DNA from: a virus
Taxonomy: Duplodnaviria > Caudoviricetes
Direction: 5' to 3' (one strand)
IMG/VR virus record: IMGVR_UViG_3300021365_000044
Span: 1 to 38,001 of that record
DNA: 38,001 nucleotides
Position numbers and translations under genes: made by a program
The notes under the pieces: model-generated
Told to the model about the DNA's origin: nothing
The model's database searches: none
Seen by the model: the letters and a program-made list of their open reading frames with translations, nothing else
In this document: positions 3,925-25,119 of the stretch, one piece after another
How positions within the stretch are numbered: the first letter of the stretch is position 1
Layout of the letters: every line of letters starts with the position of its first letter

Positions 3925-5145
3925 ATGGCTTTAGCAACTAGTTACAATGTAACATCAACCCAAGGGGCGCGTGAAAATTTAGAAAATTTATTGCGCTCTG
4001 TTTCACCAAAAGAGTGCCCTTTATTCGCAACTCTTCCCCAATCAGCCGCTCCCAAAGCGACATTAAACGAATGGCTCGTAGACTCACTTTCCGATCCCTC
4101 CCTCGCCGGACAAATCGATGGCGTAGATTATGGATTGAGCGATATGAACGATCTCGTAGCTTCAAGGGCTAGACTTGGTAATAGGGTTCAGACATTACAG
4201 GACCGATTCTCCATCTCAAAACAAGCTGAAATGATTGATGTAGCTCCTGGCGGGTCTTTATATGCCCAGTCAAAAGCGAAATCTCTTTTACAACTTCGCC
4301 GCTCTATTGAAAGTGCAATCGCTGGTGGAAATGACCAGGTAGCTGGTTCTTCTACAGTCGGAAGTACCCTCGCGGGAATCGGTGTATGGAGTGATCCAGC
4401 TTTTACAGGCAACACATTCGATACAACTTTAAAGCAAAGCTTCCGTGCGGTAAGTGGTTCAAGAATTACCTTAAATGGTATGACTGAATCTTCATTCCGT
4501 GGAATGCTGCAGGCAGTTTACGAAGCAAGTGGAAGTAAGGGAAGTTTCAAACTTTTTGCATCGACAGGAGTTATGAATGCGGTCACAGATTTCACGAGAT
4601 CCACAACTGCAAATGGTAACTTCAACTTCGATCAAGATGTATCCGATGGAAGCGTCCGTTTGAGTGTGGTAGACTATATTTCAGATTATGGTCAAATTTC
4701 GATAATCCCGGATTTATTTTTAGGTAAACAGACCTCCAAAGCAATCACCGGTGCAACGAATGCGAATCCAATCGTAATCACATCGAATGGTCACGGACTT
4801 ACCAGTGGTGATTCTGTAGTGATCAGCGGAGTTCTTGGGAACACAGCGGCAAACGGTACAAAGACTGTTACTGTTGTAAACGCTAACACATTCTCAATTG
4901 GTACAGCCGGAAACGGTGCGTACACAAGCGGAGGTGTTTTCGTAGATGCTCCAAATACTGACGAAGGAACAGTAAACACAGATCGTGCCTACTTAATTCC
5001 ATCTGACGATACTCTCAGTCTTAAATTCTTGGAAGGTATAACTGTTCAGGATTTACCTGACAGCGGTGCTGGAAAAAGATCCATCACTGAGGCGATGTTG
5101 ACTTTGCGTTGCGCAAATCCACGAGCACTTGGTTCAATAGTTTAA
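3925..5145 (+). CDS. Major capsid protein (HK97 fold, DUF5309-like) with an inserted beta-rich domain
   Basis: GARENL..L...SP.E.P, EWLVDSL, R.GN..Q and YISDYG motifs; follows scaffold, precedes a strong terminator. Confidence 0.88.
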   Translation: MALATSYNVTSTQGARENLENLLRSVSPKECPLFATLPQSAAPKATLNEWLVDSLSDPSLAGQIDGVDYGLSDMNDLVASRARLGNRVQTLQDRFSISKQAEMIDVAPGGSLYAQSKAKSLLQLRRSIESAIAGGNDQVAGSSTVGSTLAGIGVWSDPAFTGNTFDTTLKQSFRAVSGSRITLNGMTESSFRGMLQAVYEASGSKGSFKLFASTGVMNAVTDFTRSTTANGNFNFDQDVSDGSVRLSVVDYISDYGQISIIPDLFLGKQTSKAITGATNANPIVITSNGHGLTSGDSVVISGVLGNTAANGTKTVTVVNANTFSIGTAGNGAYTSGGVFVDAPNTDEGTVNTDRAYLIPSDDTLSLKFLEGITVQDLPDSGAGKRSITEAMLTLRCANPRALGSIV

Positions 5146-13448: not shown

Positions 13449-14843
13449 ATGGACTTTATAAAAAAATTAATCGGCCCATCGGAAGAGGAAATTGCAGAAG
13501 AAGCCGAGCTTCGTTTGAGTGGGGTAAGAAATGCTCAGATTATGCCCCGCCAGGTAGTAGCATCGCAAGATCCATTAAGCCCTGAATATAAAAATACTCA
13601 TGTTCAAATGTTGCGGGCGAATAACGACACTGAATTTTTCGACACGAATCCCGATCATTTTAACGAGGACATTTCACAGAACCAGGTAATAAAATATTTA
13701 GCCGAACAATCGCCAAGCGGTGAATCATTGGCCTATATTAATCCAATAGAACGAGAACTTCTCATGCTCTCCGGTGCAAAGGGTAAAATGACAAAAGATG
13801 GAATAGTTTCCTTCGCCCCCGAAGATCCGCTCAAACAGGCGGCCATGCTTCTTAATACTGCCGCACCGGAAGGTGAAGGATTAGCGTACATTAATCAACA
13901 GGAGGCACAAATGCTCAAAGATGCCGGTGGAGCGGGTGAACCGGTTAACTCCTCGGGAGTACCTTCCTTCTTCTTACAGAAACTTTTCGGGGGAGGAAAA
14001 GCACCCCCTCCCTTACCCGAATTTAATGCCGGCAAATCTGCCCGAGATTATGTTGGAGCAATGGCCGACTCGGGTCTTCAGGATCAGATGCTAGAAGTCC
14101 GCCAGCGATACGACCCACAGTATCAGGATTTACAAATGAGGCTTGCCCAACGAGCCGCCGATCCGATGGCCAGCCTAGCAGAATCTAATGCCATGCGATC
14201 ACAGGATTTTGGTGCAAGGATGGCAGAAAGACAGGCGGGGTCAGATATTTCTATGCTTGGTCGATTTGGTGCAGATTTAAACCAAGCATACCGGGCATCC
14301 GATCCGCTCATGCAAGCCCGTACAAACCAAGCTAACCAGTTAGCCGATCAGGCGTTCAATGAAGCACAAATGACTGACCTATCGCCCGAAATGAGACGGC
14401 GAGCTACTCAGTCCGCTCGTGAAGGATTAGTCTCACGGGGTAGGGGGATGGATAATGCGGGCATTGCCGCTGAGGCGATGAGCCGAGAGGATTATTTACG
14501 AGATATTATCGGACAGAATCGCCAACAGGCACAAAGCCTTGGATCGTATGCATCTAATCTAAACAGGCAAACTTCAGTCGATCCAATGGCCATGCTCAGA
14601 GGTGGACAGAATTACACAGCTCAAGGATTCGGAGAAAGGTCCGCATTATTTGGTTTACCGCAAGAATCAGTAACCCGAATTAATCCCGATGCTGGAGTAA
14701 ATATTGGTATGCAAGGTTATGCTAATAAAGCGAACTACGACTCAGCAAATTACGCCGCCCGAGAAAATGCGGCGAGCGGAATGGCACAGGGTTTATTTGG
14801 TGCGATTGGATCATTAGGCGGTGGATATCTAAGCAGAGGATAA
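13449..14843 (+). CDS. Internal virion (ejection/pilot) protein
   Basis: A/Q/G-rich helical protein ending in a Gly-rich hydrophobic segment; tandem GE.LAYIN repeat. Confidence 0.65.
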   Translation: MDFIKKLIGPSEEEIAEEAELRLSGVRNAQIMPRQVVASQDPLSPEYKNTHVQMLRANNDTEFFDTNPDHFNEDISQNQVIKYLAEQSPSGESLAYINPIERELLMLSGAKGKMTKDGIVSFAPEDPLKQAAMLLNTAAPEGEGLAYINQQEAQMLKDAGGAGEPVNSSGVPSFFLQKLFGGGKAPPPLPEFNAGKSARDYVGAMADSGLQDQMLEVRQRYDPQYQDLQMRLAQRAADPMASLAESNAMRSQDFGARMAERQAGSDISMLGRFGADLNQAYRASDPLMQARTNQANQLADQAFNEAQMTDLSPEMRRRATQSAREGLVSRGRGMDNAGIAAEAMSREDYLRDIIGQNRQQAQSLGSYASNLNRQTSVDPMAMLRGGQNYTAQGFGERSALFGLPQESVTRINPDAGVNIGMQGYANKANYDSANYAARENAASGMAQGLFGAIGSLGGGYLSRG

Positions 14844-14847
14844 AATT

Positions 14848-16332
14848 ATGGCAATTGGAGATACAGTTCAGGCGGGCTTAATGAGAATCGACACCTCGGC
14901 CTACGAAAGGGCGGGACAGGCTAATGCGAATGCTAACCAGGCATTCGGCAATGCCCTTAACCAAGTAGCCAAAGGATTTATCGAAGGGCGAGAAAAGAAA
15001 GCACGGGCAGAAGAAATGACGGGCTATCTGATGAACCAGGGAGTCTCCGAAAAAGATGCCAAAGCAATCGCCAAGAATCCATTTCTGCAAAAAGAATATC
15101 AGCGTAAAAAAGGTGCTGAACAGCAGATGAAGATCGAAGAAGGCCGAATTGCCCAAATGGCGGCCAACCGGCGAAGTGCGCAAAAGATTGCTGGAGATAA
15201 AGCCGCACAGATACAATCGGAAAAAGATTTGATTCGGGCAGAGGCAGATGAGTTGAAGGCAAATCAGATGGGCATGGCAGAAGCCCTTTCAGCTGAAACA
15301 CCCGATCCAGCAGTCTTAGAAGATTTTAACGAAGCACAGCCTGGTCTTTATGCTCTAGGCGGGGACCAAGGTGCAAGAAATCGATTTTTAGAATCTCAAA
15401 GGGATAAAGCACCCACAGTATTAGGCGGCGAACTTGACTCCTCTAATTTCCTTCGTTATGCGAGGGAACAAAATCTTGATCCTGTGCTTGCTGTTAATCG
15501 ATTTATGAGTTTGCAAAAGGCGGAGGATGAAGCTGTGCAGAATGCTCCAACTATATCAAGGGTGGGGAATGAATTAAACCCAAAAACAGGCGAGTATGAA
15601 CAAATCGCAAGAGACAAATTTGGGAATCCCATTGCCAATTACGGTCCGCCTAAACCTTCGGGAATGTATCCTACTCCTGAAGATGCACGGAGACAAGAAA
15701 TTTTAGTCGGGAGAACTAAGGATGCGATGGCATTTAATAAAGAAGCTCGAAATAATTCTAATATTGCGATTTCACAAGCTGAACAAGCTCAACAGGCATT
15801 AAAATATTTGCCTGAAACGACTGGCGGTTTAACTAGCTTTGTAAACGAGATGAAAGTAATAGGTGAATCTTTGGGGATAGATTTACCTGAAGGATATCAA
15901 AAAGATATGGCCGATATTGGGGCATTTAGGCAATTAACGGGTCAGTTTTTGTTTGAAGCTATGAGTAACACTAAGGGAGCGATTACGGAAAGAGAAATGA
16001 AATTATTCCGTCAAATTTCTCCTGACATAGATAACTCTAGAGCGGCTAATAAATTAATGCTTGAAATTTATGTTAAGGCGGGAGATCGAGCAAAACAAAG
16101 GAGAGATTTAATTAGGGATTTACAGAAGGAAGATGGAGACCCAAGACAAATTCAAATCGCTATTGAGGATTATGATGACGCAAATTCATTAATGGATGAC
16201 ATAAGGAGTTTACCTCGTAAAACAAACCAAAACTCTCAAACTCAACCAAATCGTTCAGGAGTTCGTGGGGGTAATCCTCCACCCAACTCAAATGCTCAAA
16301 CTGTAAACGGATTTAAAATACTTAAAAGATAA
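14848..16332 (+). CDS. Internal virion (ejection) protein
   Basis: Helical, KGAITEREM motif, located between the pilot-like gene and the giant gene. Confidence 0.6.
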   Translation: MAIGDTVQAGLMRIDTSAYERAGQANANANQAFGNALNQVAKGFIEGREKKARAEEMTGYLMNQGVSEKDAKAIAKNPFLQKEYQRKKGAEQQMKIEEGRIAQMAANRRSAQKIAGDKAAQIQSEKDLIRAEADELKANQMGMAEALSAETPDPAVLEDFNEAQPGLYALGGDQGARNRFLESQRDKAPTVLGGELDSSNFLRYAREQNLDPVLAVNRFMSLQKAEDEAVQNAPTISRVGNELNPKTGEYEQIARDKFGNPIANYGPPKPSGMYPTPEDARRQEILVGRTKDAMAFNKEARNNSNIAISQAEQAQQALKYLPETTGGLTSFVNEMKVIGESLGIDLPEGYQKDMADIGAFRQLTGQFLFEAMSNTKGAITEREMKLFRQISPDIDNSRAANKLMLEIYVKAGDRAKQRRDLIRDLQKEDGDPRQIQIAIEDYDDANSLMDDIRSLPRKTNQNSQTQPNRSGVRGGNPPPNSNAQTVNGFKILKR

Positions 16333-16334
16333 AT

Positions 16335-19300
16335 ATGGCTGAGTACGAAATCTCTCACCCACGCATTCCACAAATTGGAAACACTGTCCTTGAAGGGCCG
16401 GATGATTCACCTCCGCCCACAGAGCAAGACTTTTGGAATGTGGTTCACCAACAGGTCCGCCCTATAGGACTATCCCAGTTGACAGACGAGGAAAAGGTTT
16501 CTGCCTATAAAAATGGTTATTTTAATGATCCTGAACCGGTAGAAGGTCAGCCCGAACAACCTGGCATGATTGACAGTCTGCTAGACTTGGGCGGTAAGGC
16601 CGCCCTTAGAGGTTCGCAGATGATGAATGCATTAACACTAGGGAAAATCGGACACTCCGGTCCATACGATAAACTTTTAAGGCTAAACGATGAAGCGATT
16701 CCCTACGAAAAGGTAGAGAATGTTGATCAATTTCGGGAGGCGGGAAAATATCTTTTTGGTTTCCTTGATAATACTGAGTCTGACGATTTTTACGGGTCTG
16801 GGAAATCAGAATTTGATCCAGTAGCTGAAGCACTTAAACGGGTTGGAATGCCATTCTTATCAAAGAATAAGAATGCTCGTGGCCGAGTGAAAACTGCCGC
16901 AATGGATTATGCACAGGATTCAATGGTTGCCGGGATGGGGGAGGGGTACATCCGAGCCGCCAGCGGTGGAGAGTTTTTGTATAAAGGCGGGAAGTTTTTA
17001 AAAGATAAGCTCTTTTTAGATGAAGCCGATGACACCGATATCTTGGACTATGTAAATTCTGCAATTGAGTTTGATGCGTTAAATCATCGGTATGAAAATT
17101 CAGCCGAATTGGCGGCCTTTGTTTTAGAGAATCCACAGGAGTCCGTAAAAGCAATGGGTGCGGGAGTAGTAGGAGGATTGACCCCCATTGTTGAAGCTGA
17201 AGATTTAAACGAAATTCTTATCGATGAGGAGGATATAAATTTAGATTCTGACCTTCAACAGGATATCCGTTCGGGATTCGTACAGCCCGATGTTGGAGTT
17301 TCTTTTCTTTCAGAAGTAATCGGAGATCCAATGAATTTAGCTGGCGCTACAACAGCCAAAGCGGTAACCGCTCCCCAGCGAGTTGCATTGTCCGGAAAAA
17401 TTACACAAACTTTAAACGAGGTTACCAAACTCAACCAGGGCAAGGGCATGGCAATCCGTGCATTAGAGAAATTCCCCGAGGACTCTTTAATCGCCCAGCG
17501 ACAAGCAAAGTTTTTAGAGGCCGCCAACCAATCACTTGCACAGAAGCAAAAAGTGCTAGATAAATATGCTCGTAATTCAATGTTCTTACGAATGGCGGCT
17601 CAATCATCACCCGATGAATTATTAAAAGTAGCCGCTCAGAATATTGACACCGCATCCGATGCCGGAAAGGCATCCATGAATATGGTATATAATGCCATGA
17701 AACCGAGCGGAAAAATGGGCATCGCTCGCAAAGGAATTGCAATGGGTGCAAAGCTAACTCCTGAAATTGCCGGGGCAACTATCGGAGCATCTTTGGCCGG
17801 TCCCGAGGGAGCGGCACTCGGAGCTATTACCCCATCCTTGATAAAGGCGGCAAAAATAGTTTCCACGATGCCGGAAAATGTAGCAATTTCTTATATTATG
17901 AGATCAGCCGCCGAAGCGGGGGAGGAGATAACTGAACAGGCGGCAAGGAAGCAATGGAGAGGGATTACAAAATACTTATATCCTACGGGAATTTTAGGGA
18001 TCGGAATTGGTTCAACTTCGGAGGGGAGAGAGGAGGGTGGAACTAATCCTTTGTTAAAGTTTGGGGCCGCAGCATTGGGTTTAAAAGCTTTACCAAAAAT
18101 TGCCAAATTTGCCGATGCCGCAATAAGGGATAGTCGAATAATTGGTCCTGAATTAATCTATGCAAGAGGTTCAGAGGATAGCCCATTTTTTAACAGGCTG
18201 GCATTGTTGCCATCGGGAGAGGAAGGATTAATCGGAGCAAATGCGGATCGCTTTCAGGCACTTACTCGGACATCTAGTGGCGAGACTATTTTAGAGAAAG
18301 CGATTGATAAGGTCAGACCAATAGGCCGCGGGATCGCCACATCGATTAAAGATGAAGTACCGCTTTCCGAGGGGGCAAGGAATTTAATAAATAAAATACC
18401 GGGTTTCGATAGCGTACAAGGTAAAACCGGCGCACCCTTTCGACCAGGGCTTAGTGACACCAATAAAATGCTCTCCAACCCGACAAGAAAAGTTGCCCAG
18501 TTCTTGGATCGCAATCCAGCACTTGGACGGAGTATCGAAACACTCGGACGATTTGGAACTGTTGTAACTGCGGGGTCAACTTTACCCGCCGCCTTTGGCT
18601 ATGTCGGCTCAGGCGGACAAGCAGAAGGTGCAATTGCCGGAGCATTAGTATCTGCTCCATTTACATCAATCGGTGCGGGTGCTGGGATGTTTCAAGCGTA
18701 CAAAAATAAGAGCGATTTATTCCAGCAAAAGATGGGCGATGTTTATTACTATCGGGAACATCTCAATAAAAGCGAACAGGCTGACTTTGATAAGTTGCCG
18801 ATGGAAGCACGAATGGGATTAGCCGGTTACAGCTTATCGCATCCCGATATTCTTTTTAAGCCATTACCGGCGGACAAAATGGAGGGGCAAGGGAACTGGT
18901 CATTTGATGAAAATACTGGGACTTCCATTGTACGGTTTGATAAGGATACAGGGGCTGGATTAGTAGAGGGAGTTTTGGCCCATGAAGTCGGACATCACAT
19001 CGAAATTCACGGGCTTACCCCCATGGTCAATAAAATATTTTTTGGAGACCAAGTGACCGGTGAGGCGGGAATATATGGGAAGTTTAATGAAGAAGGTGAA
19101 ATCGTACCTAATCAAGCGTTTGAGGATAAACGAACTTTATATCTCAACCGACTAACTAAAGACGCTTCTATCAAACCCGAAAATTTAGATCAGTACCAAG
19201 GCAAAGAGGGAAATAAAATAATCGCAAAGGAAATTTTTGCTGAAACTGTCCGAGATTATTTATTGTCGGGGAAGAAAAATAAAGGTAACACGGCAATCGA

Positions 19301-22300
19301 GAAAATGATTACATCAGCATCGAATGCAATGATGGGAACTTCATTTGTCCGAGACTTTTTGCTTAAGTTTAATTTGCCCATGAAAGCGGACGGAAAGTTT
19401 ATTGAGGGCGGTCCATTTGAAGGTACATTAAAACGAAATCCGGCACTTACTAAACTAATCGATCAGTATTATTCGGACACCCGTGCTTTGAGACAAAGAG
19501 AGATCCAAGGCGAAGAAATTACGACACCTGGTTCGGGGCGAGTTGATAAAAAATTATCAGCGGACGGGAGGAGGCCAATCGGAGGCGATGATTTTGAAAG
19601 TTCGTTCTCATTAAAAGATCAAAACGATCCGGCGATCAAAGCAAAATTAGACACCGGTGGAATCTTTAAATGGAGGCCGACCGAAGACGGAAAAGGATCA
19701 GAATTAGAGACTGGTGCAACTGGTACTCCTAAGCGATATACTGCTGGAGAATTAAAGAAAGAACAAAGACTACAAGGTGACCATGCGATCAAAGTTTTCG
19801 AGGACAATGGGATCGAAATTATTACCAATAAGGACGGGAAGAAATCGACAGGAGATATTACAAATTTAACCTCGAAAATGATTGACGAATTGGCGGCTGG
19901 TCCGTGGCATCCTCGGCAGATTCAATCACTCCGAGAAATCAGTCGATCATTACGAGAAGGCGATGGAGAAAGAGCGGGATTTTTAATCGGATATTTTGCT
20001 AAATCAAGTGGCAGAAAACCAAAGGCCGTACCATTCACTTTGAGGCAAGAAATGCCATACGGATTTAAGCTGACAAATGATGGAAATATCCTCGTGCTTT
20101 TACACGATGTTCCGCAACTCGAAAAAAATCTTAAATTCTTAAAAGGGGGCAAGAGATTGCCAGGTAAATACAGAGACGAATATAATCAACTTTTTGACAA
20201 CGATACAGAAGTTTGGAAAGCATTTCAGCAGTACAGAATTAACACCGCAAATGGCATGGATGGACAGCTTGGATTAGACGATGATCCAGCCCGAGCAATG
20301 CGCAAGAAAAATTTCTTAAATTCATTGCATGGGGCGATAGATAAAGAGCATATAAAACTAAACCCGGTTTTACTTGAAATAAGTAATATTAAGGGCATGG
20401 ATATGTTCAATCCAAAAAAGACAAGTCCGTTCGGTCCAGCAACTAAAACCTTTCGACTAGATGGCATTTTTGATGTCACTAGATCGGGCAATAGAAACTC
20501 AAATGTAAACCTTGATCGAGTAAGAACATTACTAATGCCTCGTCAGTCTAAAAACTATGATAAAAAAGTAGCACTTAGAACTAATGATAGTTTGATCGAA
20601 CTTGTAGATAAAATAGCGAACGAAGAAGGAGTCTCTCGGAACGATGTATTAAATCGGATTTTGCAGGAGAAATTTAGTCCCGAGGAAATTAAAACACCGG
20701 ACTCGGAAATTGTCCCACCATCACCAGGAAAAGAATCTCAAAATTTATCTGAACCAACATTAAAAAAATATTGGTCCGAGGACAGCGATCAAGATTTAAA
20801 CTGGTTGCAAAATGACCCGAGTAAAAAACTTTTTATGCCGGCTGAAAGTGTCGAACAAAGACGGGCAAATAAATATGGTCAAAAGCTTCAAGAAGCAACA
20901 TTGTCGGACAAACAAATTATTGCAGAATCAAGGCGGGATTGGATGGAGAACGGATTCAAGGCCGAGAACTTTCAGGCATGGATGTCTAGTGGAATTGAAC
21001 GGCCAATTTTAGCCAATGAAAAGGATGGTTTTTACGAGCCTGTAAAACTATATTATGGTGGACCTTTAGGCATGGCGAAACGCCCCGGCTTTAACGCCGC
21101 CGCCCCGTTAGAAATTTTACAGAAATCAGAATTTTCTGAAGGAGTAACAAAAAAGGCTACTGATCAGTATACATCGGATAAAACAATCGTATTAACTGAT
21201 AGTAAGAAACTCGCAAAAGCTGAACAGGATGCCACCGCAGAAGGGGGTAAACCATTAGAGTTTGCAACCAACGCAAGCTTTATATTTGACCCCGCTGTCC
21301 CGCAACATATTGAACTGCTTAAAAATTCAATCGAACGAGTAGAACCTGACTCTCCGGAAATTCAAAATATCGACAGGTTGAAAAATAATCCCGATGATAC
21401 TTTTGCCTACGAAGATCTTTTAAAAAAAGCCGGTTGGGATGGGTACAAAATTGACAATAAGAATGGTGCGGGATATGCCATTTTTGACGCTAAAAAAGTA
21501 AAGCTCATATCCGACCAGGCGGGTGAAGGAAAGTTCTTTACGAAAGACCGGCCTTATGGAAAAGTCTCCGGTCTTTTTGGCCGACCACTTCCATCGGATC
21601 GAATGAGTGCGATGGGGCAAAGTGAGCGGGGTAGGGATGTCCGTTTCATGCCCCAAATGGAACTTGATTTTGACGGTAAAAGTAAGACTACTAGGCCGAC
21701 TGAACAGCCCTCGCAAGGTATATCCTTTTGGAAGCTTTTTGGCATAGATAAAAATGATAAACAAGTATATAAAAAAGTAGCTGAAAAACTTATCAATACT
21801 GGTAGCCCGGATATGGACCCGCAGACCGCTTTAGACTATGGTCCGAGGCTTGGTATGGATGTTAAAAGATTGCGCCAAGAAATGGTAAAAGCCCAGCGTA
21901 GAGATTCATCATCCGGCAATAAATATTTTATGCCCAACGATGGGGACTATATGCACAAATCCGGGGGCATTATTTTACCTGATGGATCGTTCATAAAAAA
22001 AGAAGTTGAACACAACATCGATTTATTTGATTGGGTCGAAAATAATCCGAAAAATCCATTTGCTCAAAAGATGAAAAAGGCTGAAAAATTTCACGATGAA
22101 AGGTATGGTGAAGAAGAAGGTTTTTATGTCTTAGAAGCCGCCCTGAATGCTGGTGCAATTAGAGTCGCTAGAGATAGCCCAAATTCTAAAAATATTTACA
22201 TCCAATCCGGTCGTGAAATCCCTAGTAGACTTCGGAGAGAATTAATCGACCAAGCAATGATGACGGGCAACACTTTGATCCAAGATCGCGGGTCGCGAGA

Positions 22301-23804
22301 ACAGATAATTTTTCAGCCTGAAAATAAACTTTTTATGCCAGCGGCCTTCCACGGCACACCTCACACCCTAGCCCCTGAAGCGGGCGCACCCTTGGGCAGA
22401 TTCAGAACATCGAAGATTGGAACAGGCGAGGGCGCACAGGCTTATGGGCATGGGCTTTACTTTGCGGGGAAGAAAGAAGTAGCGGAGCATTATCGGAAGG
22501 CACTTTCAGAAGAAACTATTATGTATGATGGGGCCCCTTATGACGGGAATAATTTACGCCACTTCGCCGCTCAGGAACTTGAGATATTTTCATCGCCTAA
22601 TGTAGACACACGAAAAGCTGCGATAGATAATCTGCGTTCCATAGATTATCTGCCCCAATACGGAAATAAGAGAGAAGTGGCTGACCGTTATCGGAAGGCA
22701 CTTTCCGGAGAAACTATTATGTATGAGGGGGTTTTGGAGAAGTTCAGAGCGGCTAACAAAAAAGCATTAATAGAGATTTTAGATAAAAAACAAGAAGCAA
22801 AAACAACTCGTGAAACTAGAGGCTCGCTCTATGAAGTCGAACTTGCCCCGAAGGAGAACGAGTATCTGCTATATGATAAGACTTTAGGCGAACAGCCCAA
22901 AGGGGTACAGGATAAGCTCAAGAAGTTCCTACGGGAACAGGAGGGCGAGGATACTTGGCAATACCGACAAGAACAGGATTATCGGGACATCACTAATAAT
23001 GTACTCGATGATATGCCCGAGGCTGAAATCTCCAAGCGATTAAAAGAAGCCGGCATACCAGGCATCAAATATTTAGATGGAGCATCCCGATCCAAAGGCG
23101 AGGGCGATTACAATTATGTAATCTTCGATGAAGCCGATGTCACGGTGACAGAGAAACTCTTCATGCCAGCAAGCGAAGCGGGTGCGGGTAAGGGGAAGGT
23201 GGCCGAGGCCGCAAAGCTATGGAATGAGAAGGGGATTGATTCGCCATACTTTAAGAAGTGGTTCGGCAAGTCCAAGGTAGTCGATGATAACGGCGAGCCG
23301 TTGGTGGTTTATCATGGGAGTAAAGCAGATTTTACCGAGTTTAAAAGGTCAAAGGGGGGCGAATTTGGATCAGGAATGTATTTCTCTGATAACATTGATT
23401 CGGCAAAAATGTTTGGAAGTTTTCAAAAAGGGGACTCGGAAGTTGTCACAATGCCGGTCTATTTAACTTTAAAGAATCCATTGATTACCAACGATAGAAA
23501 TGTCCCAAGGGGTGCGGGGATCAAATCTCTAATTAAAAAAGGATATGACGGAGTAATTGGGACTACACCAAACGGGCAAAAGCAATACATCGCCTTCTCC
23601 CCCGAACAAATCAAATCGGCCACCGGCAACCGAGGGACTTTCGATGCGGGGGAGAGGAATATAAACTATATGCCCTCAGACCCCAAAGCCCCAAAGGCTC
23701 AACCCGCCAATCGCATCCAACAGCAAGCACCCGCTATGCCTGGTAATCGATTCATGGCTCCCGCCGCAAGTGCCGGTGCTAAATTATCCGAAAGATTTCG
23801 GTAA
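16335..23804 (+). CDS. 2489-aa polyvalent internal virion protein: ejection-like N-terminus, HExxH metallopeptidase, RHH and ADP-ribosyltransferase-like modules
   Basis: LAHEVGHHIE..KEIFAE zincin; VALRTNDSL...GVSRNDVL RHH; FHGT..GHGLYFA..GIPGIKY..YVIFD and YHGS..GMYFS..VYLTLKNP..GYDGV..YIAF ART-PolyVal patterns. Confidence 0.85.
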   Translation: MAEYEISHPRIPQIGNTVLEGPDDSPPPTEQDFWNVVHQQVRPIGLSQLTDEEKVSAYKNGYFNDPEPVEGQPEQPGMIDSLLDLGGKAALRGSQMMNALTLGKIGHSGPYDKLLRLNDEAIPYEKVENVDQFREAGKYLFGFLDNTESDDFYGSGKSEFDPVAEALKRVGMPFLSKNKNARGRVKTAAMDYAQDSMVAGMGEGYIRAASGGEFLYKGGKFLKDKLFLDEADDTDILDYVNSAIEFDALNHRYENSAELAAFVLENPQESVKAMGAGVVGGLTPIVEAEDLNEILIDEEDINLDSDLQQDIRSGFVQPDVGVSFLSEVIGDPMNLAGATTAKAVTAPQRVALSGKITQTLNEVTKLNQGKGMAIRALEKFPEDSLIAQRQAKFLEAANQSLAQKQKVLDKYARNSMFLRMAAQSSPDELLKVAAQNIDTASDAGKASMNMVYNAMKPSGKMGIARKGIAMGAKLTPEIAGATIGASLAGPEGAALGAITPSLIKAAKIVSTMPENVAISYIMRSAAEAGEEITEQAARKQWRGITKYLYPTGILGIGIGSTSEGREEGGTNPLLKFGAAALGLKALPKIAKFADAAIRDSRIIGPELIYARGSEDSPFFNRLALLPSGEEGLIGANADRFQALTRTSSGETILEKAIDKVRPIGRGIATSIKDEVPLSEGARNLINKIPGFDSVQGKTGAPFRPGLSDTNKMLSNPTRKVAQFLDRNPALGRSIETLGRFGTVVTAGSTLPAAFGYVGSGGQAEGAIAGALVSAPFTSIGAGAGMFQAYKNKSDLFQQKMGDVYYYREHLNKSEQADFDKLPMEARMGLAGYSLSHPDILFKPLPADKMEGQGNWSFDENTGTSIVRFDKDTGAGLVEGVLAHEVGHHIEIHGLTPMVNKIFFGDQVTGEAGIYGKFNEEGEIVPNQAFEDKRTLYLNRLTKDASIKPENLDQYQGKEGNKIIAKEIFAETVRDYLLSGKKNKGNTAIEKMITSASNAMMGTSFVRDFLLKFNLPMKADGKFIEGGPFEGTLKRNPALTKLIDQYYSDTRALRQREIQGEEITTPGSGRVDKKLSADGRRPIGGDDFESSFSLKDQNDPAIKAKLDTGGIFKWRPTEDGKGSELETGATGTPKRYTAGELKKEQRLQGDHAIKVFEDNGIEIITNKDGKKSTGDITNLTSKMIDELAAGPWHPRQIQSLREISRSLREGDGERAGFLIGYFAKSSGRKPKAVPFTLRQEMPYGFKLTNDGNILVLLHDVPQLEKNLKFLKGGKRLPGKYRDEYNQLFDNDTEVWKAFQQYRINTANGMDGQLGLDDDPARAMRKKNFLNSLHGAIDKEHIKLNPVLLEISNIKGMDMFNPKKTSPFGPATKTFRLDGIFDVTRSGNRNSNVNLDRVRTLLMPRQSKNYDKKVALRTNDSLIELVDKIANEEGVSRNDVLNRILQEKFSPEEIKTPDSEIVPPSPGKESQNLSEPTLKKYWSEDSDQDLNWLQNDPSKKLFMPAESVEQRRANKYGQKLQEATLSDKQIIAESRRDWMENGFKAENFQAWMSSGIERPILANEKDGFYEPVKLYYGGPLGMAKRPGFNAAAPLEILQKSEFSEGVTKKATDQYTSDKTIVLTDSKKLAKAEQDATAEGGKPLEFATNASFIFDPAVPQHIELLKNSIERVEPDSPEIQNIDRLKNNPDDTFAYEDLLKKAGWDGYKIDNKNGAGYAIFDAKKVKLISDQAGEGKFFTKDRPYGKVSGLFGRPLPSDRMSAMGQSERGRDVRFMPQMELDFDGKSKTTRPTEQPSQGISFWKLFGIDKNDKQVYKKVAEKLINTGSPDMDPQTALDYGPRLGMDVKRLRQEMVKAQRRDSSSGNKYFMPNDGDYMHKSGGIILPDGSFIKKEVEHNIDLFDWVENNPKNPFAQKMKKAEKFHDERYGEEEGFYVLEAALNAGAIRVARDSPNSKNIYIQSGREIPSRLRRELIDQAMMTGNTLIQDRGSREQIIFQPENKLFMPAAFHGTPHTLAPEAGAPLGRFRTSKIGTGEGAQAYGHGLYFAGKKEVAEHYRKALSEETIMYDGAPYDGNNLRHFAAQELEIFSSPNVDTRKAAIDNLRSIDYLPQYGNKREVADRYRKALSGETIMYEGVLEKFRAANKKALIEILDKKQEAKTTRETRGSLYEVELAPKENEYLLYDKTLGEQPKGVQDKLKKFLREQEGEDTWQYRQEQDYRDITNNVLDDMPEAEISKRLKEAGIPGIKYLDGASRSKGEGDYNYVIFDEADVTVTEKLFMPASEAGAGKGKVAEAAKLWNEKGIDSPYFKKWFGKSKVVDDNGEPLVVYHGSKADFTEFKRSKGGEFGSGMYFSDNIDSAKMFGSFQKGDSEVVTMPVYLTLKNPLITNDRNVPRGAGIKSLIKKGYDGVIGTTPNGQKQYIAFSPEQIKSATGNRGTFDAGERNINYMPSDPKAPKAQPANRIQQQAPAMPGNRFMAPAASAGAKLSERFR
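22470..22730 (+). repeat. In-frame 63-bp direct repeat (22470-22532 and 22668-22730)
   Basis: 55/63 nt identical; KKEVAEHYRKALSEETIMYDG versus KREVADRYRKALSGETIMYEG. Confidence 0.9.
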
Positions 23805-24055: not shown

Positions 24056-24970
24056 TTATCCTCTTGGGTGGGCTAGGCCGTGGACTTCTTTAAGGCGGGC
24101 GCTAGAAACATGGGTGTAAATTTGTGTACTCGATAAGCTTGAATGCCCGAGTAATTCCTGGATTGCACGAAGATCCGCACCATTATCAAGTAAGTGAGTA
24201 GCGAATGAATGTCGAAGCTTGTGCGGGGTGATATCATGCGGAAGCTCCGCGAAGTTTAAATACTTCTTAATCAGATATTGGACCGACCGAGTGGTAAACC
24301 TCTTACCGAAAGAATTTATAATGACTGGATCGGACTTTTTCGATTTCTTGGCAAACATATGCCTAAACTTTTGGACTGTGTCGCTGGCCTGTTTACCGAT
24401 AACTACCATTCGTTCTTTCTGACCTTTCCCGACTACCTTTATAGTTGAGCGAATAAAATCGATGTCCTCGTAATTAATGCTAACTAATTCGCTAACTCGT
24501 AAGCCCCCAGCATAAAGAAGCTCTAAAATCATCAAATCCCTCAATGAATTAAATTTTATTCCTACGCCCTTCGGCTCATTGGCTGGCGGTTGCTTCATCA
24601 GCTTAGTCATCTGATCTTCTGACAAAACTTTGGGCAGTGGCTTACTAAGCTTGGGGAGGGCGATATTTAAAAATGGATTTATTGTGGCAAGCTTACGAGT
24701 CCGGCAAAAAGTAAAAAAGGTACGGAGGCCCGAAATATGATGCCTAAGTGTTCGGCGGGATATTTGATTCTGTACCTCAATGCAGTAACTTCTAGCCTGT
24801 TGCCGGGTAACCTCAGAGGGTAGGGTGACCTTCTCCTCCTTCTTAGCCCAGGTAAAAAATAACTCAATGGCGTGTTTATAGTTACGGACCGTGTAAGGTG
24901 ATAATCGGCGGACTACTTTCATGTATTCAATAAACTCAGAAAGTTCAAAAAGTACAATTTTGTCGGCCAT
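24056..24970 (-). CDS. xerC: Tyrosine recombinase of chromosomal XerC type
   Basis: SAM-like N-domain (LSPYTVRNY), ELLYAGGLRVSEL, GKGQKER, TPHKLRHSFATHLLDNGADLRAIQELLGHSSLSSTQIYTHV; catalytic R-K-H-R-H-Y complete; start set at MADKIV. Confidence 0.88.
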   Translation of the reverse strand: MADKIVLFELSEFIEYMKVVRRLSPYTVRNYKHAIELFFTWAKKEEKVTLPSEVTRQQARSYCIEVQNQISRRTLRHHISGLRTFFTFCRTRKLATINPFLNIALPKLSKPLPKVLSEDQMTKLMKQPPANEPKGVGIKFNSLRDLMILELLYAGGLRVSELVSINYEDIDFIRSTIKVVGKGQKERMVVIGKQASDTVQKFRHMFAKKSKKSDPVIINSFGKRFTTRSVQYLIKKYLNFAELPHDITPHKLRHSFATHLLDNGADLRAIQELLGHSSLSSTQIYTHVSSARLKEVHGLAHPRG

Positions 24971-25119
24971 ATGTTTTGTTATTTTATTTATGCGGATTTG
25001 TAAAGCTGTTTGCCTTCGCAAACACTTGTAAGGCTGTTATTTTCTTTCGCTAACCCTTGCGTTAGAATTAGTCCACTTTATAGCAATTTAGTCCTTGCAT
25101 GGGTGTTTGCAGTCCAATA

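Follow-up and report, generated by a model that had tools for sequence, protein, structure and literature searches.

The phage genome analysed here encodes a polyvalent protein of 2,489 aa whose C-terminal cassettes are separated by a short tag, F/Y-M-P, and the interpretation of this tag as a real protein-level junction code within a known protein family is well supported. In our best reading, which we hold to be probable, the tag is the recognition and cut site of the giant's own zincin-like metallopeptidase, and self-cleavage would occur between F/Y and M. An earlier note, made from the sequence alone, had proposed a polyprotein cut by its embedded peptidase. The junction tags, their conservation in homologues, the shuffling of cassettes, the intact zincin and a predicted enzyme-tag complex agree with this proposal, whereas its expectation that cassettes vary only at the tags did not hold.

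We picture the giant as a fixed core followed by a variable row of cassettes, which would be packed whole and pass through the tail into a host, probably a member of the Verrucomicrobia. There it would refold and likely cut itself into separate effectors, probably after injection, setting free ART, DNA-binding and other domains that start with Met-Pro. Recombination between phages would exchange cassettes at the tags, and also inside shared ART blocks.

Gene setting and domain organization

The window (the whole stretch of DNA analysed) is an entire virus record of 38,001 bases, in which we identified genes for an SU10-type capsid protein, tail proteins including a tail-collar protein, a family A DNA polymerase, a terminase large subunit and a XerC-like recombinase; several open reading frames matched no family. 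The giant is encoded among the virion genes, and its position suggests that it is the last of three probable ejection-protein genes following the tail-collar gene. A family search with the two upstream proteins returned no match. The features of this region, all on the + strand, are as follows.

13449..16332, +: two genes (464 and 494 aa) between the tail-collar gene and the giant, probable partner ejection proteins by position
16335..23804, +: giant polyvalent protein gene, 2,489 aa, downstream of capsid and tail genes
16335..18764, +: N-terminal conserved region, aa 1-810, lacking tags and family matches
18765..19520, +: zincin-like metallopeptidase, aa 811-1062, by ligand conservation, model and weak fold matches
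18981..18995, +: zincin residues H883-E884-x-x-H887, with Y936 at 19140 and E966 at 19230
19521..20534, +: second conserved core region up to the first tag, a fold without assignment
20532..20540, +: tag 1, RTL-LMP, border of core and cassettes, where many homologues have F or Y
20535..20834, +: cassette 1, RHH-like DNA-binding domain and linker, 100 aa; weak PF01402 match
20832..20840, +: tag 2, KKL-FMP, placed in the zincin cleft by modelling
20835..21647, +: cassette 2, degenerate ART-fold domain of 271 aa with Tyr instead of the strand-1 His
21645..21653, +: tag 3, DVR-FMP
21648..21929, +: cassette 3, small helical domain of no known family, 94 aa
21927..21935, +: tag 4, NKY-FMP
21930..22334, +: cassette 4, rare, 135 aa, GGIILPDG...H...GAIRV; no family
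22332..22340, +: tag 5, NKL-FMP
22335..23162, +: cassette 5, ART-like by motifs (FHGT, YGHGLYF), 276 aa
23160..23168, +: tag 6, EKL-FMP
23163..23669, +: cassette 6, ART-PolyVal (PF18760), 169 aa
23667..23675, +: tag 7, NIN-YMP
23670..23804, +: conserved tail of 44 aa that contains NRFMAPA (F-M-x-P at 23751-23762) and ends ...ERFR

The XerC-like recombinase gene (window 24056-25021, - strand) faces the giant gene, scores 312 bits against TIGR02224, slightly below the cut-off, and suggests a temperate phage. Among GTDB genomes the giant has a single relative, 77% identical, in an Opitutales MAG on a contig of 6 kb, which points to a host among the Verrucomicrobia, provided that the contig is not mis-binned. 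The 464-aa protein (window 13449-14843, true start codon uncertain) contains LAYINxxE twice and, near its N-terminus, AQIMPRQ, which resembles tag 1 (TLLMPRQ). The capsid protein (window 3925-5145) carries an E1_FCCH-like domain at aa 285-340 (E=3e-10).

A recurrent tag at the cassette borders

All eight junction motifs listed in the earlier note were located at their ATGs (20535, 20835, 21648, 21930, 22335, 23163, 23670 and 23754), and the tag was indeed confined to the tail: [FY]MP occurs six times and L-M-P once, all from aa 1400 on. Six copies compare with a mean of 0.26 in shuffled sequences, none of 20,000 shuffles reaching that number, and FMP is the only tripeptide of the giant to pass Bonferroni correction (p=0.004). 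The proposed consensus, K/R-x-F/Y-M-P, describes four of the eight motifs (KKLFMP, NKYFMP, NKLFMP and EKLFMP) but not the other four. Among 118 tag contexts in homologues, 70 have K/R at position -2 and 39 belong to a second class, [DN]-I/V-x-F/Y-M-P. NRFMAP, the eighth motif, is present but in another register, F-M-x-P, and we regard it as a tail signal in its own right; 50 of 58 proteins keep it within their last 30 aa. This tail is not universal, since alternative last cassettes, with endings such as ...VIRDQR, ...VPIIIP and ...KRLGY, replace NRFMAPA in nine loci (L012, L032, L033, L035, L037-L039, L055 and L092).

Cassette exchange among homologues

A search with aa 850-1400 returned 57 homologues, giving a set of 58 proteins with the query. 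HExxH is found in 57 of the 58, the exception being N-terminally short. Across the 57 homologues, the 76,778 aa of conserved core contain a single [FY]MP, whereas 168 copies are found in the 41,891 aa of variable tail; the tags are conserved at junctions. Splitting at the tags yielded 231 segments in 44 loose, single-linkage clusters, one of which (M1) lumps several ART-like families while a few are unsplit tails of distant proteins. The number and order of cassettes vary, in line with the idea of a shuffled array: cassette 3 has 21 copies among homologues, in differing orders, and a relative whose core is 98% identical to the query (P0001) has one other cassette in place of cassettes 4-5. GNAT, DUF7178 and many ART-PolyVal variants are found among the cassettes of relatives; most cassettes there have no family.

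Every cassette has M-P at its start and a half-site, [K/R/I/V]-x-F/Y, at its end, so any two joined cassettes rebuild a full tag. Indeed, 54 left and 46 right halves occur in 83 combinations, a single right half being preceded by 11 different left ones. In places, two tags enclose only an empty scar of 11-28 aa in lieu of a full cassette; examples of 11-14 aa are found at L033:10812-10844, L035:6802-6834, L055:6486-6527 and L063:851-892.

We compared the positions of the tags with homology breakpoints, which were counted per protein and are not independent events. With the tags masked, 156 of 527 protein breakpoints fell within 10 aa of a tag (46.8 expected), and 113 of 530 DNA breakpoints fell near one (28.6 expected). 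The claim that modules vary only at FMP junctions is contradicted by these counts: breakpoints are enriched 3-4-fold at tags, yet 371 of the 527 protein and 417 of the 530 DNA breakpoints, roughly 70-80%, lie elsewhere. The sequence comparison indicates that the tags are preferred swap points, but that most exchanges fall inside cassettes.

Tag dialects in distant relatives

For more distant relatives we tested for enriched tripeptides with only the first residue fixed as F/Y, in the 81 testable representatives out of 149 identifiers. A significant downstream tripeptide was found in 26 of the 81 ([FY]MP in 25), compared with none of the 81 upstream and 1.2 in shuffles. Many representatives without FMP repeat F/L-R-P or F-S-P instead (classes named after looking). 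Distant loci have repeats of F-E-P (seven in L046) or of F-S-P, some of which precede the same cassette start. On a zincin tree of 67 rows, built by a quick method, three dialect labels required 5 changes compared with 17.3 when shuffled (0 of 200 shuffles); such clustering is expected from kinship alone and hence speaks for clustering by kin rather than for co-evolution. No pocket residue was found to switch clearly with the M-P or R-P dialect; both dialects coexist in 8 of 131 proteins.

An intact zincin predicted to bind the tag

The HEVGH motif that had been noted at 18981 is present there, and the zincin is intact, as proposed. H883, E884, H887, Y936 and E966, comprising the ligands and the catalytic Glu, do not vary in any of the 30 aligned rows, whose mean identity is 29%, and HExxH is combined with a downstream Glu as third ligand, the residue pattern of the gluzincin type. 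It is the sole HExxH among 32 open reading frames scanned in the window. The zincin model contains three strands and the HExxH helix, and its secondary structure fits the expected sheet and helices. Metallopeptidases dominate its weak fold matches (top Z 4.8, rmsd 5.0, 147 aligned). No Pfam model matched the zincin region itself, a PDB sequence search found no solved relative (best E=0.055), and Foldseek gave no match at E<=0.001 for either the zincin or the tail model described below.

Zincins generally bind extended peptides. We modelled aa 811-1055 (30-row alignment) with zinc and a 32-residue peptide spanning tag 2 (aa 1486-1517). The complex scored 0.72, compared with 0.02 for the best of three controls, which were unrelated proteins and not scrambled tags. 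The mark for this score is reached by 116 of 157 solved complexes and by 2 of 215 mismatched pairs, counts that hold only roughly here, where our own alignment was used and the zinc rode along. The runs agree in at least 66% of contacts, with a partner pLDDT of at least 50. The confident interface comprises only peptide residues 12-19 (K1497-E1504, KKLFMPAE), located in the zinc cleft. The tag is predicted to lie on the zincin edge strand (aa 850-856), with H883 and E884 touching M1501 and H887 touching L1499, and invariant Y936 is within the predicted interface. Assuming a thermolysin-like geometry, F1500 would occupy P1 and M1501 P1', a register that we read as cleavage between F and M. The model thus supports binding of the tag in the zincin cleft.

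In 150 representative stretches we found the full residue set in 133, EExxH in five, Leu for Tyr in four, one dead zincin and seven incomplete stretches; all 143 complete stretches keep the catalytic Glu, and 139 of them the Tyr. The dead zincin (P0222) lacks both the second His and the third ligand and, in a sequence that may be incomplete, has no cassette row. The EExxH subclade consists of P0186, P0190, P0193, P0199 and P0227, and three of these five representatives keep 3-5 tags. If EExxH is inactive, an enzyme in cis would not be strictly needed, unless the Glu acts as a ligand. The EExxH subclade and P0222 provide controls of natural origin for cleavage.

Several observations weigh against self-cleavage at the tags. 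EExxH proteins retain tags, and an L-M-P remains at the core end of P0222. The 70-79% of breakpoints away from tags, the lack of a dialect-switching pocket residue and the coexistence of two dialects in some proteins do not favour it either, nor do the low fold support for the zincin and the unrelated nature of the controls, given that zincins take up extended peptides in general. Some tags lie inside domains or core: one YMP is found within an ART-PolyVal domain (L067), and FMP occurs inside the core in 9 of 96 loci, in the N-terminal core of seven and just past HExxH in two. The N4 vRNAP also has an HExxH domain, yet is packaged unprocessed, as stated in the available text of PMC5512222.

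Some of the same evidence would suit a tag that is bound without being cut, gripped by the zincin cleft or by some other surface of the core so that the protein's long tail is packed into the head or its threading through the phage tail is paced. The complex model predicts binding only, the EExxH subclade keeps its tags, and in N4, according to the available part of PMC5512222, the vRNAP is whole in the virion and the C-terminal HExxH region is needed for encapsidation. We regard this alternative as unlikely, because a pure grip needs no general base, whereas the catalytic Glu is kept throughout the complete stretches and the Tyr in nearly all.

It is rather more doubtful that another protease, from the host or an unrecognised one of the phage, cuts the tag while the zincin acts on peptidoglycan or on a host protein. 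Peptidoglycan digestion has been proposed for similar domains of phi24B (10.64898/2026.04.10.717836) and crAss phages (10.1101/2020.03.07.982082), in the parts of these papers available to us, and the window contains open reading frames without a family that could hide such an enzyme. Family and open reading frame searches of the 38-kb genome nevertheless found no protease other than the giant's zincin, the dialect tracks the zincin lineage, and the model docks the tag in this very zincin.

The tag is maintained as protein sequence

Over 183 distinct tag contexts, the four Pro codons are used 51, 50, 42 and 40 times (0.01 bit at the third position) and both Phe codons occur. The Met is encoded by ATG in 176 of the 183 contexts; the remaining seven have Leu, encoded by TTA or CTA in six, and five of the seven represent one junction type. 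SD-like words are no commoner at tags, being found ahead of 16 of 128 tag ATGs and 220 of 2,063 other ATGs. Because of this codon use, we consider the tag to be conserved at the protein level and not as a DNA site or start codon: free codon use led us to reject a DNA-level site, and codon use, with Leu variants mostly encoded by non-start codons, an internal start.

These data bear on the possibility that recombination itself left the tag, as a scar at a short DNA microhomology or site-specific crossover point maintained by the swapping of cassettes there. DNA breakpoints peak no further than about 10 nt from the tag ATG, three tags are covered by 17-20 nt direct repeats, and the phage encodes the XerC-like recombinase. 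We hold this to be improbable, as free synonymous change at the Pro and Phe codons largely refutes it; moreover, unrelated cassettes (GNAT, DUF7178, RHH-like and ART) all bear the tag, and the majority of swaps occur elsewhere. That the Met is an internal start codon from which cassettes are also made as separate proteins is highly improbable despite the prevalence of ATG, given the non-start Leu codons, the frequency of SD-like words, the Arg, Ser or Glu found at the Met position in other clades, and the preceding F/Y and following P, which it leaves unexplained.

Cassette identities and tail model

One chain combines a zincin, an ART-PolyVal domain, an ART fold and an RHH-like domain. For cassette 1, assignment as an RHH module found weak support (PF01402, E=0.0099, and weak fold matches over model residues 23-74). 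The degenerate ART-like module proposed for cassette 2 was borne out by its fold, which matches 6KYF (VIA Z 6.5, rmsd 3.7, 120 aligned); 11 of its top 13 fold matches are named PARP or toxin-antitoxin chains, and its strand-1 sequence, LYYGG, has Tyr in place of the His of ART-PolyVal (H-Y-D) domains. The second-best fold match of cassette 2 is 9K3A_B (residues 949-1602) from the cyanophage A4 pre-ejectosome, which suggests an ART-like domain in a solved ejection protein; the available main text of the corresponding paper (PMC12002296) does not mention ADP-ribosylation.

The modules given as 93 and 134 aa, cassettes 3 and 4, are both present and without a family, but count 94 and 135 aa from M to F. 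Two further ART-like modules had been proposed. Cassette 6 is an ART-PolyVal domain by profile (PF18760, E=1.8e-31 to 5e-30), and its VYHGS carries the strand-1 His. Cassette 5 is ART-like by motifs only: FHGT is present and phrog_873 matches at aa 2122-2277, but we found no significant Pfam match and none to PF18760, and BLAST to cassette 6 was weak (E=0.077). Cassette 5 contains a 64-nt internal duplication (88%; window 22470-22533 and 22668-22731). A PDB sequence search found no relatives of cassettes 5 and 6, and the ESM Atlas gave no usable match for cassette 4 or the second core region.

An AlphaFold model of the tail (aa 1381-2010, 25 rows, mean pLDDT 55.6) covers tags 1-5; cassettes 5-6 and tags 6-7 lie outside it, since the whole-tail alignment collapsed ART-like cassettes onto one another. 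All five modelled tags are located in stretches of pLDDT <50, outside long helices or strands, but with 308 of 630 residues below 50, low confidence at the tags is weak evidence, and the YMP inside the L067 domain runs counter to a strict rule.

Relation to known systems

Phage polyvalent proteins were defined by Iyer et al. 2017 (PMC5512222), where self-processing by the MPTase is, in the available text, proposed and not shown. The giant resembles these proteins in being a large multidomain protein encoded among virion genes that combines MPTase, ART and DNA-binding domains. It differs in its defined tag, half-site grammar, clade dialects and modelled enzyme-tag complex. The available text of PMC5512222 mentions no cleavage site, junction motif or linker, though its supplementary alignments might show a motif. 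Our literature search, which covered few subscription papers, found no report of such a junction tag, and none appears in the available parts of PMC9503650, 10.64898/2026.04.10.717836, PMC13434306, 10.1101/2020.03.07.982082, PMC9024508 or PMC12002296. Polyvalent self-processing has thus been a standing proposal since 2017, and the search found neither a named site nor a demonstration. What the present analysis adds is a candidate enzyme (aa 811-1062, E884), a candidate site (F/Y|M-P), together with a predicted register and putative counterparts of the site in cultured phages. If the reading is true, tags mark the mature borders of dozens of injected domains, candidate anti-defence or host-takeover effectors, and explain how phages shuffle cassettes without breaking delivery.

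RNA-virus polyproteins are chains that an embedded protease cuts at recurring sites. The giant shares with them the single chain, the one embedded protease and the repeated junction site, but has no ancestry or domains in common with them, and has a metalloprotease, probable delivery as protein, and exchangeable cassettes. The same analogy is drawn in the available text of PMC5512222. The N4 vRNAP gp50 (PMC13434306) and the crAss-like gp65/gp66 (10.1101/2020.03.07.982082) are giant ejection proteins with an HExxH zincin-like domain, but an RNA polymerase domain was not detected in our giant. Cleavage of fused crAss polyproteins has been suggested (10.1101/2020.03.07.982082), and the available portions of these two papers report neither a cut site nor demonstrated proteolysis.

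A broader generalization, to which we give somewhat less than an even chance, is that polyvalent phage proteins as a rule are self-cleaving polyproteins with a modular code: the zincin of each clade would read its own tag, an aromatic residue followed at the cut by x-P/R/Q, two half-sites per cassette would make any recombinant processable, and marine phages would share a library of injected-effector cassettes. If so, polyvalent proteins would contain a large protease family whose sequence-specific sites could be predicted, and mature effector boundaries could be read from sequence.

We compared the giants of the cultured phages F116 (gp60), USP_25, Y11, Dartukuta, BF1-TP2 (gp68), DC33 and ctEw122. 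At the homologous position, their ART-PolyVal domain terminates in a related motif (ILFSR, IRFSR, IRFRE, IRFSF, IFNQ), and in most a like motif also precedes the domain, the patterns having been chosen post hoc; the residues after the aromatic differ from those of our tag. A blind k-mer test on 12 GenBank phage giants gave nothing significant, and the JessA and MinM2 giants have no clear repeated motif. In BF1-TP2 gp68 (L131:7219-18120), ART-PolyVal, PBECR5 and an HExxxH zincin are flanked by four R-F-R motifs, and the peptidase there would thus itself be a tagged cassette.
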